Positions 66 to 6,051 of a stretch of 6,051 bases of DNA are shown here, piece by piece. Positions within the stretch are counted from its first letter, which is position 1, and every line of letters begins with the position of its first letter. Under the pieces are notes generated by a model, which searched no databases, was not told the origin of the DNA, and saw nothing but the letters and a program-made list of their open reading frames with translations. The translations under genes were made by a program, and so were the position numbers. The stretch comes from Escherichia phage ID62, in sequence record NC_007824.1; one strand, 5' to 3'.

Positions 66-434
66 ATGAAACCTGCTCACCGCCTTACTCACCCTGTTCT
101 TGGTTCATGGTTGTTTAAGTGCCCCGTCTATGTTCGTTATGAGTCTGTTCACAATGGTCGCCTTATCAAGGTTCGCGCTGTTCGTGATTTGTCTCCTCGC
201 CAGCAACTGATTGCTAACCCTAAAAATTGTTTTGACGTTGTCATTGTTGAGATTGACTTCACTTATTGCTCTGTTACCTATTTTGATTATGAGGCTGAGG
301 AATATGCTGAGTGTGGCCCAGAGACTATGGATAGCATCATTGCTTATATTAACGCTCCTCACTCCCTTCGCTCTGAGGAGGATTTATCCGTTGATGTTGA
401 TGATATGGAATGGCTCTATGAAATTGCGGAGTAA
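66..434 (+). CDS. Hypothetical protein, 122 aa, basic N-terminal half and strongly acidic C-terminal tail (H-A intergenic ORF 1)
   Basis: ATG at 66 preceded by GGAG (54-57) at 8-nt spacing; open to TAA at 432-434; codon third positions strongly T-biased (gtt, cgt, gct, cct, ctt), as in the canonical genes here. The ORF track starts it at ATG 24, which has no SD. No similarity to any phiX174 protein that I recognise. Confidence 0.5.
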   Translation: MKPAHRLTHPVLGSWLFKCPVYVRYESVHNGRLIKVRAVRDLSPRQQLIANPKNCFDVVIVEIDFTYCSVTYFDYEAEEYAECGPETMDSIIAYINAPHSLRSEEDLSVDVDDMEWLYEIAE

Positions 435-437
435 ATC

Positions 438-527
438 ATGGAAACTGTTATCGGAAAATTTATTGCTCTGGCTGTTGTTGCTCTTATGCTGTATGGAATT
501 TCCCGTTTGATTCGGAGGTTCCCGTGA
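438..527 (+). CDS. Small hydrophobic peptide, 29 aa (METVIGKFIALAVVALMLYGISRLIRRFP), predicted single transmembrane helix with basic C-terminus (H-A intergenic ORF 2)
   Basis: ATG at 438 with GGAG (428-431) 6 nt upstream, starting 3 nt after the ORF 1 stop; TGA at 525-527. Hydrophobic core FIALAVVALMLYGI followed by RLIRRFP. Below the length cut-off of the supplied ORF track. Confidence 0.4.
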   Translation: METVIGKFIALAVVALMLYGISRLIRRFP

Positions 528-700
528 AATATTTTAGTTTGGTTGATGAACATTATGCTTATTGCCTTGATACAAGGATTTTGCATATCACTCGCAGTCG
601 TGTTTCTGACCCTCGGTATGAGCGTCGCTTTCTTACTGATGAGGAGCATCTTGCACTTTTGGATTGGTTGAAAAATCGCCCAGCTTACATTAATTCTTGA
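524..700 (+). CDS. Hypothetical protein, 58 aa, GTG start (H-A intergenic ORF 3)
   Basis: GTG at 524-526 overlaps the ORF 2 stop (ccGTGA, 4-nt overlap typical of translational coupling); GGAGG at 514-518 with 5-nt spacing; TGA at 698-700; T-ending codons throughout. Translation MKYFSLVDEHYAYCLDTRILHITRSRVSDPRYERRFLTDEEHLALLDWLKNRPAYINS. Start codon choice is uncertain. Confidence 0.45.
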   Translation: MKYFSLVDEHYAYCLDTRILHITRSRVSDPRYERRFLTDEEHLALLDWLKNRPAYINS

Positions 701-726
701 CAGACCTTTAAAATACCCTCTATATT
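697..726 (+). promoter_or_regulatory. Candidate sigma70 promoter for gene A (pA-like)
   Basis: Consensus -35 TTGACA at 697-702, 18-nt spacer, -10 TATATT at 721-726; about 34 nt upstream of the gene A ATG; phiX174 has a promoter at the equivalent position. Confidence 0.5.
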
Positions 727-759
727 GCTCTCATAGTTTCACTATGAGGGCTTTTTCGC

Positions 760-3043: not shown

Positions 3044-3057
3044 GGGGCTTCGGCCCC
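3044..3057 (+). terminator. GC-rich stem-loop with UUCG tetraloop in the J-F spacer (mRNA-stabilising or weak terminator hairpin)
   Basis: GGGGC-TTCG-GCCCC, a 5-bp G/C stem closing a cUUCGg tetraloop, followed by AAGGA and the F start; no T-run follows. Confidence 0.5.
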
Positions 3058-3072
3058 TATAAGGATTTATAA

Positions 3073-4356
3073 ATGTCTAATGTACAGACTTCCGCTGAAC
3101 GTATTCCCCATGACCTGTCTCATCTGGTTTTTGAAGCAGGTAAAATTGGTCGCTTAAAAGTTGTTTCTTGGACTCCTGTTGTTGCAGGTGATTCTTTTGA
3201 GCTTGATATGGTTGGCGCTATTCGCCTTTCTCCGCTTCGTCGCGGTCTTGCTGTTGACTCTCGCGTTGACCTGTTCACGTTCTATGTCCCTCACCGTCAT
3301 ATTTATGGTGAAGAGTGGATTCAGTTTATGAAAGATGGCGTTAATGCTAAACCTCTTGCACCTGTGACTTGTTCGCGTGGTTGGGATAGTGCTCAGTATT
3401 TAGGTACAATCCCTTCCAGTACCCTTAAGGTGCCTAAATTTCTTCATCAAGGTTATTTGAATATTTATAATAACTACTTCAAAGCTCCGTGGATGGATGA
3501 CCTGACTTACGCTAACCCGTCCAATATGGAAGGTGAAGACGTTCGTTTTGGTGTTCGTGCTTGTAACCTGAAAACTATTTGGACTGCCCCTTTGCCTCCG
3601 GGTACTGAAACTTCTCATTCTATGAAGACTGAGGCTAACTCTATCGATATTATGGGTTTACAAGCCGCTTATGCTCAATTGCATACTGAGCAGGAGCGTG
3701 ATTACTTCATGACTCGTTATCGTGATATTGTTAATGAATTTGGTGGTAGTACTTCTTATGATGCGGATAATCGTCCTTTGCTTGTTATGCATTCTGAGTT
3801 TTGGGCTTCAGGCTATGACGTCGACGGCACCGACCAAAGTTCTCTCGGTCAGTTCTCCGGACGTGTACAGCAGACCTTTAAGCATTCAGTACCGCGATTC
3901 TTCTGTCCTGAACACGGCACTATGTTCACGCTTGCACTGGTCCGCTTCCCGCCAACTCACGAAATGGAGATGCATTACTTAGTTGGTAAAGAGGATTTAA
4001 CTTATACTGATTTGGCTTGTGATCCAGCTCTGATGGCTAACCTTCCTCCTCGTGAGGTTAATATGAAGCAGTTCTTCCACTCTGGCGATGCTAATGCCAA
4101 GTTTAAGATTGCTGAAGGTCAATGGTATCGTATGCAGCCTGACCGTGTTGCGTTGCCGTATAACTATCTTGATGGCTTCCCGTTCTATAGCGCGATTCCG
4201 TCTAGTGATATTAAGCAGCGTGTTTTGGTCAATACTGACAACTACGATGAGGTTTTCCAGTCTATGCAGCTTGCTCATTGGAATATGCAGACTAAGTTCA
4301 ACTGCACGATTTATCGTAATATGCCGACCACTCGCGATTCCATTATGACTTCTTGA
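3073..4356 (+). CDS. F: Major capsid protein F, 427 aa
   Basis: Length and position after J as in phiX174; AAGGA at 3061-3065 with 7-nt spacing; sequence resembles phiX174 F from memory. Confidence 0.97.
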   Translation: MSNVQTSAERIPHDLSHLVFEAGKIGRLKVVSWTPVVAGDSFELDMVGAIRLSPLRRGLAVDSRVDLFTFYVPHRHIYGEEWIQFMKDGVNAKPLAPVTCSRGWDSAQYLGTIPSSTLKVPKFLHQGYLNIYNNYFKAPWMDDLTYANPSNMEGEDVRFGVRACNLKTIWTAPLPPGTETSHSMKTEANSIDIMGLQAAYAQLHTEQERDYFMTRYRDIVNEFGGSTSYDADNRPLLVMHSEFWASGYDVDGTDQSSLGQFSGRVQQTFKHSVPRFFCPEHGTMFTLALVRFPPTHEMEMHYLVGKEDLTYTDLACDPALMANLPPREVNMKQFFHSGDANAKFKIAEGQWYRMQPDRVALPYNYLDGFPFYSAIPSSDIKQRVLVNTDNYDEVFQSMQLAHWNMQTKFNCTIYRNMPTTRDSIMTS

Positions 4357-4362
4357 TTATGT

Positions 4363-4376
4363 GGGGCTTCGGCCCC
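4363..4376 (+). terminator. Second copy of the GGGGC-TTCG-GCCCC stem-loop, in the F-G spacer
   Basis: Identical 14-nt hairpin to 3044-3057, again followed by AAGGATTT and a start codon. Confidence 0.5.
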
Positions 4377-4392
4377 CTTTAAGGATTTGATT

Positions 4393-4938
4393 ATGTTTCA
4401 AGTTTATGTATCTAAGCATGTTGCCCCGTTCACTTCTAAGAACCGTGCCTTTTCTATTTCCCCTGCCGCTAACCCGCAGGTTGTTAACTCTGGTGAGATT
4501 GTTGCAGGTCGCTCCACTTTCCGCGTTGCGTCTTCCATTGGCGCTGCTTCTAATGGTAGTGGTTTTGCGTTTGTTCAGATGATGGACCCCAATTCTCCTG
4601 ATTCTCAGCAGGTTTTCTCTGTTGCTGCTTCGCTGTCCTTTAGTGTTGACTCGAATTACATTCCTTGTGTTGTTCGTTTTGAGAGCACTGCTGCTCAGCC
4701 TACTGGTTTTAATATTGCAACCTCTGATTTCATTCCGGTTGAGGCTTCTGCTCTTTCTCCTCGTGCGCTTAGTGTTCGCGATTGTGTCACTGTTGATGTT
4801 AAGCCTCGTGCTGAAGGCAATAATGTCTTTGTTGGTGTGGTTTTCTTCTCTGCCTCCGCTAATGCTGGTAATGTTACTGGTGTTGTTTCGATGGCTCAGG
4901 TTGACCACGAAGTTACAGCTTTGCAGCCGCTTAAATAA
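4393..4938 (+). CDS. G: Major spike protein G, 181 aa
   Basis: MFQVYVSKH... aligns with the phiX174 G N-terminus (MFQKFISKH) and ends in ATVLQPLK-like TALQPLK; AAGGA at 4381-4385 with 7-nt spacing. The ORF track start at 4387 is TTG. Confidence 0.92.
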   Translation: MFQVYVSKHVAPFTSKNRAFSISPAANPQVVNSGEIVAGRSTFRVASSIGAASNGSGFAFVQMMDPNSPDSQQVFSVAASLSFSVDSNYIPCVVRFESTAAQPTGFNIATSDFIPVEASALSPRALSVRDCVTVDVKPRAEGNNVFVGVVFFSASANAGNVTGVVSMAQVDHEVTALQPLK

Positions 4939-5073
4939 AAGGCCGCCGCACTCCCGGTTAGATGCCTGCCCAGTGTAGGGCGGACCGAGCCTTACGGAGA
5001 TACCCGATAAACTAGGAACGCGGAAGGCGTAAGCCGCCTTCCCTCCTGCTAAGCCCAAAGGAGACTTTCAGCT
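4939..5073 (+). other. Structured G-H intergenic region; candidate primase-dependent complementary (-) strand origin and/or post-G terminator
   Basis: An 8-bp perfect stem GGAAGGCG (5022-5029) / CGCCTTCC (5035-5042) with 5-nt loop, plus a second hairpin CTGCCC (4966-4971) / GGGCGG (4978-4983); 135 nt non-coding, GC-rich relative to the rest of the genome. From memory, alpha3, St-1 and phiK place their negative-strand origin between G and H. Confidence 0.4.
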
Positions 5074-6051
5074 ATGATAGGTGCCGTTGTAGGTGGTATT
5101 GCTTCAGCCTTAGCCAGTGGAGCCGCTTCTAAGCTGTTTGGTGGCAAACCTGCCGCTCAAGCCGCTACTGAGTCCTCTGGCCTTTCCAATGGTCAAGGTG
5201 TTATTGGTATGGATAATGATGCCGGTATCCAGTCAGCTATTCAGGGTTCTAATGTTCCTAATGGTCAGATTCCCGCTCCCACTCAGACTGGAGGTGTTAT
5301 GGCTGATGCCAAGAATATGATTAAGAATGCCGGTAAGGATTTGCTTGATGGTGTCATGACTGCTGGTAGTGACCGAGTCAAGCAAGCGTTAGTTGATAAA
5401 TTGAGTGGTAATAATGCAAAGAAACAAGGACAAGCAACCCGTGATTACTTGGCTGCGGCCTTCCCTGAGCTCAATGCATGGGAACGTGCTGGAGCTGGTG
5501 CTTCCGGCGCCGGACTGGAATCTTCCGGTCAGGACCAACAGAAGGAGTTGATGCGTATGCAGCTGGATACTCAGAAGGATATTGCTAAGATGCAGATGCA
5601 GAATAATTTGCAGATTGCCGGTATTCAGTCCGCTACTTCTCGTCAGAACACAAAGGATTCTGTTTATGCTCAGAATGAGATGCTTCAGTACAATCAACGT
5701 GAGTCACAGGCACGCGTCGAGTCCATCCTCGCCAATACTGACCTTACGGCTAAACAAGCTACCCATGAAATTATGAGAATGGCTCTTACCCGTGCTCAGG
5801 AGACTGGTCAGCATTTGACTAATAGTCAGATTATGGCTTTGGAGAAGAAAGTTTATGCAGAAATCGGAAAAATTCATCAAGATACTCAAAACGCTCGCTA
5901 TGGTAGCTCTCAAGTTACTGCTACGGCGAAAGACGTTTCGAACATGATTACTGATGCCGCCTCAGGTTTTGGTGATTGGGCCTCTCAACAGTGGAATTCC
6001 TTCTTTAAGGATGGCAAGTCCAACGGTATTCCTCTTAACACTAGAAAATAA
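5074..6051 (+). CDS. H: Minor spike / DNA pilot protein H, 325 aa
   Basis: N-terminus MIGAVVGGIASALASGAASKLFGG and internal RDYLAAAFPELNAWERAGA, IAGIQSATSRQNTKD and VYAQNEML match phiX174 H from memory; AGGAG at 5059-5063. Confidence 0.95.
   Translation: MIGAVVGGIASALASGAASKLFGGKPAAQAATESSGLSNGQGVIGMDNDAGIQSAIQGSNVPNGQIPAPTQTGGVMADAKNMIKNAGKDLLDGVMTAGSDRVKQALVDKLSGNNAKKQGQATRDYLAAAFPELNAWERAGAGASGAGLESSGQDQQKELMRMQLDTQKDIAKMQMQNNLQIAGIQSATSRQNTKDSVYAQNEMLQYNQRESQARVESILANTDLTAKQATHEIMRMALTRAQETGQHLTNSQIMALEKKVYAEIGKIHQDTQNARYGSSQVTATAKDVSNMITDAASGFGDWASQQWNSFFKDGKSNGIPLNTRK

Follow-up and report, generated by a model that had tools for sequence, protein, structure and literature searches.

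The region between genes H and A of Escherichia phage ID62 holds a short open reading frame, ORF3, which, judged by how its sequence varies among relatives, is almost certainly a real protein-coding gene of the alpha3-like microviruses. The fuller account, which we regard as probable, is that ORF3 is the last gene of a three-gene cassette, is translationally coupled to ORF2, and yields a small soluble accessory protein.

ORF3 as a gene of the H-A region

The window, that is the whole stretch of DNA analysed (6051 nt), comprises the complete genome of an alpha3-like microvirus (Bullavirinae, Alphatrevirus) and is linearised immediately 3' of gene H. Its open reading frames give the canonical genes in their usual order, and positions 1-759 make up the long H-A "intergenic" region typical of Alphatrevirus. 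The features on which the analysis turns are the following.

66-434, plus strand: ORF1, the first gene of the cassette, 122 aa, acidic, pI 4.7
438-527, plus strand: ORF2, ATG at 438 and TGA at 525-527, a hydrophobic peptide of 29 aa, METVIGKFIALAVVALMLYGISRLIRRFP, pI 10.9
514-518, plus strand: Shine-Dalgarno sequence GGAGG, inside the ORF2 codons CGG AGG (Arg-Arg), 5 nt (519-523, TTCCC) before the GTG
524-700, plus strand: ORF3, GTG start and TGA stop at 698-700, 58 codons, 7.1 kDa, pI 6.8
760-2244: gene A
2504-2962: gene D
3073-4356: gene F
about 4393-4938: gene G
5074-6051: gene H

The ORF1 stop lies 3 nt ahead of the ORF2 ATG, and the ORF2 TGA overlaps the ORF3 GTG by four nucleotides, as GTGA at 524-527. 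The first-pass annotation had pointed to the GTG overlapping the ORF2 stop, to the GGAGG at 5-nt spacing within ORF2, and to a charged central segment of the ORF3 product. All three are present, the last as residues 23-51 (TRSRVSDPRYERRFLTDEEHLALLDWLKN); the product also contains the peptide FLTDEEHLALLDWLK. Taken alone, these features are not beyond chance. The window contains 32 open reading frames of at least 58 aa (20 on the plus and 12 on the minus strand), only 8 of them known genes and 24 unexplained, and at four of its six GGAGG sites a possible start (ATG, GTG or TTG) follows at a distance of 3-10 nt. The ORF3 observation rises above this chance level because it is conserved across relatives.

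Conservation was followed in 24 distinct sequences, made up of 13 distinct GenBank relatives together with contigs from Logan, ENA, IMG/VR and NCBI; the relatives are 81-95% identical, so that the comparison samples one shallow clade. Disruption of the frame in close relatives had been named in advance as one observation that would speak against the gene. The frame is open in all 24, fused to ORF2 in one of them (L015) and running through its stop in phiK. Variable columns fall on first, second and third codon positions in 12, 7 and 30 cases of 57 (chi-square p = 1.3e-4), and pairwise pN/pS comes to 0.10 for the ORF3 frame vs 1.01 and 1.82 for the other two. For codons 1-90 of gene A in the same genomes pN/pS is 0.116, and synonymous divergence is the same in both places (pS 0.303 for the gene A start, 0.309 for ORF3), which indicates that purifying selection on ORF3 is as strong as at the start of this essential gene. 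T makes up 0.58 of the ORF3 third codon positions, known genes ranging from 0.40 to 0.60. The proposal that a protein is encoded from GTG 524 is thus strongly supported, by the open frame in 24 of 24 sequences, the low pN/pS and a start codon that keeps its position.

It could be argued that ORF3 is untranslated and that the region acts as a cis-acting DNA or RNA element, such as sequence upstream of a promoter, a signal for packaging or replication, or a structured RNA. The H-A region is unannotated in most GenBank records, the 3' end of ORF3 overlaps a promoter-like site, and open reading frames of this length are frequent by chance in the ID62 genome. An element of this kind would, however, not be expected to bring with it an equivalent ATG/GTG start or a 3-nt periodicity, whereas the substitutions gather at third codon positions of the ORF3 frame only, with the low in-frame pN/pS set against values of at least 1.0 in the other frames. 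Furthermore, a search of the window against Rfam gave no match, and the predicted folding of the region does not exceed that of shuffled sequences. We consider this reading very improbable; the three-base periodicity would not be produced by a cis-acting element, and therefore argues for ORF3 being a real gene.

Homologues of the ORF3 protein have 77-95% identity over 88-100% of the query (E 1e-22 to 1e-29), and by tblastn the gene is found at 86-95% identity in 24 full-length records. The order H, ORF1, ORF2, ORF3, gene A is common to phage Lilleven and to contigs from Logan, ENA and NCBI, in which Microvir_H lies upstream and Phage_GPA downstream; along the related contigs Microvir_H, Phage_GPA, Phage_C, gpD, Phage_F and Phage_G follow each other as in the window. 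The H-A region as a whole matched 25 phage records at 81-92% identity, all alpha3-like, with no other match even at blastn-distant sensitivity. Neither this search nor tblastn with ORF3 went beyond these 25 alpha3-like records, and no phiX174-like or G4-like record was among them. In phiX174 and G4, by contrast, the H-A region is short and lacks such genes. ORF3 showed no homology to any of the 11 canonical Bullavirinae products (A, A*, B, C, D, E, F, G, H, J, K). The ORF3 family thus appears to occur only in alpha3-like microviruses.

The H-A region and the capsid gene differ in the relatives that they match. A megablast search with gene F (3073-4356) recovered 16 alpha3-like records, without alpha3, St-1, phiK and Lilleven, whereas the H-A region (1-760) matches these four at 84.5-86.6% identity. 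Therefore, either conservation across the genus is higher in the cassette than in the capsid gene, or the genomes are mosaic.

Start codon and proposed coupling to ORF2

Translation of ORF3 very probably starts at codon 524, going by the conservation of this codon across the clade. The start stands at the same codon throughout, as GTG in 17 relatives and as ATG in 6 (NC29, ID32 and the L016-L020 group), while later in-frame TTG and GTG codons are not conserved. Directly after it, the residues K2-Y3-F4-S5 persist although their codons change synonymously. The ATG lineages have an in-frame stop 1-4 codons ahead of the start, and therefore the protein can have no earlier start there. An upstream extension was also considered, as the ORF3 frame is open from 422 in GTG-type phages. 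It was ruled out by the stops in the ATG lineages and by the lack of a coding pattern upstream: read in the ORF3 frame, the ORF2 region has 9, 10 and 2 variable columns at the three codon positions.

Every junction but one brings the ORF2 stop onto or against the ORF3 start. Among the 24 sequences, GTGA is found in 17, ATGA in five, TGA-A-ATG in one (ID32, with a 1-nt gap), and a fusion in one; an upstream stop that overlaps or abuts the next start is the mark of a stop-start coupled pair. The C-terminal tail of ORF2 varies (RLIRRFP, RLISRTLK, RLIDRTLR, RLISRT), and its stop stays on or beside the ORF3 start. The ribosome-binding sequence varies too. GGAGG, a site annotated as ribosome binding site in the alpha3 record M25640, is kept in the GTG-type relatives except for TGAGG in phiK, and is replaced in the ATG-type lineages by AGGA at about 8-nt spacing, so that loss of GGAGG accompanies the change of start from GTG to ATG. 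A stop-start juxtaposition preserved in three junction sequences is what selection for termination-linked initiation would be expected to look like, which is not proof of it. The three types may represent one or two events only, and the ATG lineages may be a single clade. Moreover, compact microvirus genomes pack their genes anyway, and juxtaposition alone is therefore no proof of coupling. On balance, we consider it slightly more likely than not that coupling to ORF2 contributes to ORF3 translation.

Coupling by stop-start overlap of the AUGA/GUGA type is known from trpB-trpA of E. coli. ORF3 resembles that type in its four-base overlap, in a Shine-Dalgarno sequence inside the upstream coding sequence, and in a juxtaposition that is kept across sequence change; it differs in that the upstream gene is only 29 codons long and that in ID32 the stop and the start do not overlap but are 1 nt apart.

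The main rival to coupling is that ORF3 is real and translated independently of ORF2 through GGAGG, the 4-nt overlap being mere genome compaction. GGAGG with a 5-nt spacer is a near-ideal Shine-Dalgarno sequence, and tiny gaps or overlaps are general among microvirus genes, the 3 nt between ORF1 and ORF2 being an example. On the other hand, NC29, ID32 and L016-L020 lack GGAGG yet keep the juxtaposition, with ATG as the start, and GTG is the weaker initiator. In most relatives, furthermore, the Shine-Dalgarno sequence and the start are predicted to be mostly paired (P(unpaired) 0.17-0.5), although statistical support for a structure that masks the site is lacking. Independent initiation as the whole explanation is a real possibility to which we give somewhat less than even weight.

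The masking structure in question can be placed as follows.

495-522, plus strand: predicted RNA hairpin, 495-503 pairing with 514-522, which would sequester the Shine-Dalgarno sequence

This hairpin is predicted in the window and in several relatives, with a local minimum free energy of -11.5 kcal/mol, and in 10 GTG-type sequences 92% of the cells can pair. No compensatory changes were found in it, its central pair is broken in six of the 10, and shuffled sequences fold as well as the region does (z = 0.23). We take sequestration of the site by this hairpin as a possibility that the folding model weakly suggests.

In the coupled account, ribosomes that end ORF2 at UGA 525-527 would sit on the ORF3 start, with GGAGG 5 nt upstream of it. 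Reinitiation or facilitated initiation would then yield the ORF3 product in step with that of ORF2, and independent initiation driven by the Shine-Dalgarno sequence would probably add to this in the GTG/GGAGG lineages.

The same junction also admits a frameshift. In this scheme, a -1 slip at CCC-G (521-524) with UGA in the A site would produce a membrane-anchored ORF2-ORF3 fusion: tRNA-Pro on CCG 522-524 could re-pair with CCC 521-523, leaving GUG 524 in frame, and the ORF3 frame is open far enough upstream in GTG-type phages. A metagenome contig, L015, even has a deletion giving exactly such a fusion (P0003), yet it was assembled at low coverage and may be in error. The slip site is absent from the ATG-type lineages, which read AAA-TGA or AGA-TGA and in which a stop closes the ORF3 frame shortly before this point. 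To judge by prfB and dnaX, a Shine-Dalgarno sequence 3 nt from the P-site codon favours +1 and not -1 shifts, and the one here lies at only that distance. The variation of the ORF2 region in the ORF3 frame is also of a non-coding pattern. Frameshifting is highly unlikely in our estimate, and was rejected for a slip site that is not conserved and an upstream frame without a coding pattern.

The L015 fusion (298-534 of the ENA contig ERZ13405072 NODE_196078, 761 nt, coverage about 2.2) arises from a 26-nt deletion that removes the Shine-Dalgarno sequence, the GTG and the ORF2 stop, and joins ORF2 residues 1-22 to ORF3 residues 5-58 in a product of 78 aa. It may be a natural variant or an assembly error. 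If real, it would mean that ORF3 tolerates a membrane tether.

Putative transcription signals and the other two genes

The 3' end of ORF3 runs into two elements that stand directly ahead of gene A.

697-726, plus strand: promoter-like element, presumed pA, with TTGACA at 697-702, an 18-nt spacer and TATATT at 721-726
727-756, plus strand: T_H-like hairpin and T-run from the terminator scan (stem 727-751, then TTTTT), directly 3' of the -10

The promoter-like element matches the sigma-70 consensus at 11 of 12 positions, which is the best score in the window, where the scan returned 9 sites vs 9.0 expected from shuffles. The ORF3 TGA lies inside its -35 hexamer. TTGACA is kept in 22 of 24 relatives, and the ORF3 stop is shared with the -35 in 22 of 24, phiK and L033 being the exceptions to this sharing; TATATT is kept in most, but ID32 has it in altered form and NC35 has lost it. 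The ATG of gene A, at 760, follows 4 nt after the T_H-like element. In phiX174, a combined pA-T_H element with net terminating activity has been described, and ID62 likewise has a promoter-like site ahead of gene A, with a hairpin and T-run immediately after it. A conserved -35/-10 pair at 18-nt spacing, then a hairpin and T-run, is the arrangement of a pA-T_H element, and NC35 is an exception to it. The first-pass annotation had the ORF3 stop overlapping the -35 of the gene A promoter. The overlap itself holds in 22 of 24 sequences; that the TTGACA/TATATT pair is a working gene A promoter we infer from consensus, conservation and the analogy with phiX174.

Several relatives deviate at these elements. 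NC35 (L014) has a 29-nt deletion equivalent to 704-732 of the window, by which the -10 and the 5' hairpin arm are lost and TTGACA and the ORF3 stop stay in place; therefore pA is either dispensable or replaced in NC35. ID32 has the T_H-like hairpin arms CAAAG/CTTTG vs CATAG/CTAYG, with pairing kept. In phiK (L011, X60323) TGG stands for TGA at the equivalent of 698-700, which adds 12 residues to ORF3 and changes the -35 to TTGGCA; it may be an error in an old sequence. In L033 (1396-1566; GCA_002120565.1, NFYT01000619.1), a TAA two residues early gives a product of 56 aa, with the stop outside the -35.

At the other end of the cassette, the promoter scan gave no convincing promoter ahead of ORF1, and a further hairpin is found there.

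28-65: terminator-like hairpin and T-run just after gene H (stem 35-58, outer arms GACTC/GAGTC)

The ORF1 Shine-Dalgarno sequence lies in the 3' arm of this hairpin and reads TGGAG in the window vs AGGAG in most relatives; ORF1 starts at 66. With no convincing promoter of the cassette's own and with terminator-like hairpins on its flanks, ORF1-3 are therefore probably expressed on transcripts through gene H. ORF1, ORF2 and ORF3 would then form a compact accessory cassette that fills the space from gene H to the gene A promoter, and that would be read on transcripts running past gene H and ending at the T_H-like hairpin after the promoter.

Both companion genes of ORF3 are kept in the clade. 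ORF1 is conserved in all relatives (pN/pS 0.27; variable columns 44, 34 and 99), and all of its homologues lie on contigs of about 6.1 kb or on shorter fragments, which suggests that it is confined to the alpha3-like clade, as is ORF3. Its AlphaFold model is beta-rich (pLDDT 88.8, pTM 0.80). The acidic C-terminus of ORF1 ends DVDDMEWLYEIAE, and the P0028 and P0029 lineages have an ORF1 of 154 aa with an N-terminal extension of 32-34 residues.

Of the 24 relatives, 23 carry an intact ORF2, 28-30 aa long, and GGAG lies 6 nt ahead of the ORF2 ATG. Its variable columns number 10, 2 and 9 by codon position, with pN/pS 0.39; the conservation of second positions (p = 0.066) is as expected for a membrane segment. 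With its hydrophobic sequence and basic C-terminus, ORF2 is likely a single-pass inner-membrane peptide. The pS of the ORF2 region is unusually low, at 0.14 vs 0.31 for ORF3 and 0.44 for ORF1.

Structured elements were also seen elsewhere in the genome. An identical GGGGCTTCGGCCCC hairpin occurs at 3044-3057, after gene J, and at 4363-4376, after gene F, where no copies are expected by chance; in both places a similar AAGGATTT...ATG leader of the next gene (F and G, respectively) comes after the hairpin. The G-H intergenic region (4939-5073) is GC-rich and looks highly structured. In alpha3, St-1 and phiK, this is the region of the primase-dependent complementary-strand origin.

The ORF3 protein and its significance

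The first-pass annotation had recommended homology searches and structure prediction, which gave orthologues from the clade only and a model of four strands and a helix. AlphaFold2, run on a very shallow family alignment, placed strands at residues 2-6, 9-14, 19-26 and 29-36 and a helix at 39-50 (pLDDT 80.8, pTM 0.60), and the BFVD model of the Lilleven orthologue (A0A4D6DYU6) has the same fold (TM 0.87). Invariant residues gather in beta3-beta4 (R18, I19, L20, H21, T23, R24, S25, R26, D29, P30, R31, Y32, R34, F36, L37) and in the helix (E40, E41, H42, A44, L45, D47, W48, L49). The predicted product would be a small, soluble, cytoplasmic four-stranded beta-meander, with a basic beta3-beta4 hairpin (R24, R26, R31, R34, R35) and an amphipathic acidic C-terminal helix.

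Family searches led no further than the clade. Pfam, PHROGs, NCBIfam and PADLOC returned nothing significant for ORF1, ORF2 or ORF3; the best family-library score was for phrog_638, a 'transcriptional regulator', at E = 0.17, and a PDB sequence profile search with ORF3 gave only a chance-level stretch of a kinase (E = 0.047). An exhaustive HMMER search over 1.84 billion representative proteins found only ORF3's own cluster, and a word-indexed search of 5.8 billion clusters only the alpha3-like clade. Two candidate homologues, P0010 and P0011, were rejected as repeat proteins matching only the helix motif. Fold searches with the ORF3 model gave no significant structural match.

Among the weak, insignificant fold matches, Pur-alpha and the Whirly-like MRP1/2 recur, and ORF3 might accordingly be viewed as a single-repeat PUR/Whirly-like protein that dimerises and binds phage ssDNA or RNA. 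In the ORF3 model, as in PUR and DUF3276 domains (PF04845, PF11680), the order is beta-beta-beta-beta-alpha, with beta3-beta4 basic and the helix acidic and amphipathic, and hhalign sets beta3, beta4 and the helix in register with DUF3276, not significantly. However, the DUF3276 domain is longer and has an invariant GKRTYFFDVK motif that ORF3 lacks, and numerous unrelated folds score equally well or better. The relationship was tested with PurA and DUF3276 sequences validated against Pfam, and with hhalign against 26 fetched DUF3276 members. Since hhalign gave P = 0.26 and a probability of 0.2%, membership of PUR/DUF3276 is not supported; hmmscan showed no PurA or DUF3276 match at E up to 1, and the assignment was rejected. 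We regard a PUR/Whirly-like protein as improbable, and the PUR-like order of strands and helix in the model as an idea about how ORF3 might work.

As to function, a nucleic-acid- or protein-binding accessory factor that acts together with the ORF2 peptide, and that is not a component of the virion or of core replication, is a tentative suggestion that we think unlikely to be correct. More doubtful still is that ORF3 would be a new PUR-like nucleic-acid-binding protein, made in fixed ratio with the ORF2 peptide and having a membrane or anti-defence role. Like the non-essential small Bullavirinae genes K and A*, ORF3 is small and would stand outside the assembly and replication core; it differs from them in overlapping no other gene except for 4 nt of ORF2.

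The gene has gone almost without annotation. Bullavirinae are textbook minimal genomes, usually given as having 11 genes. Lilleven is the only GenBank record that annotates ORF3, and all three open reading frames are hypothetical proteins there. Its orthologue, QBZ71504.1 (MK629527.1, 5855-6031), has 58 aa, is 86-88% identical, and likewise follows a 29-aa open reading frame with the same 4-nt overlap; it bears only the label 'hypothetical protein', and the other 24 records with the gene lack a CDS annotation. The early alpha3 record (M25640) had ribosome binding sites marked at these positions. A 2026 alphatrevirus genome paper annotates only the 11 canonical genes, and these open reading frames are nowhere discussed in the literature that our search covered, Rokyta et al. 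2006 and Kodaira et al. 1992 lying outside it.

The coupling arrangement is in itself ordinary, and the novelty lies in what appears to be a clade-restricted gene family in a group thought to be fully annotated. One whole genus would keep three genes beyond the 11, and most alphatrevirus records would be under-annotated, which raises the question of what an extra 0.7-kb module does in a 6-kb virus. If the PUR-like reading were true, ORF3 could act at the inner membrane, where it would tether or regulate phage ssDNA or mRNA, for example in control of the adjacent pA-T_H element or of gene A expression, or it could counter host defence. Either role, if true, would help to explain the growth of the alphatrevirus clade on hosts beyond E. 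coli C.
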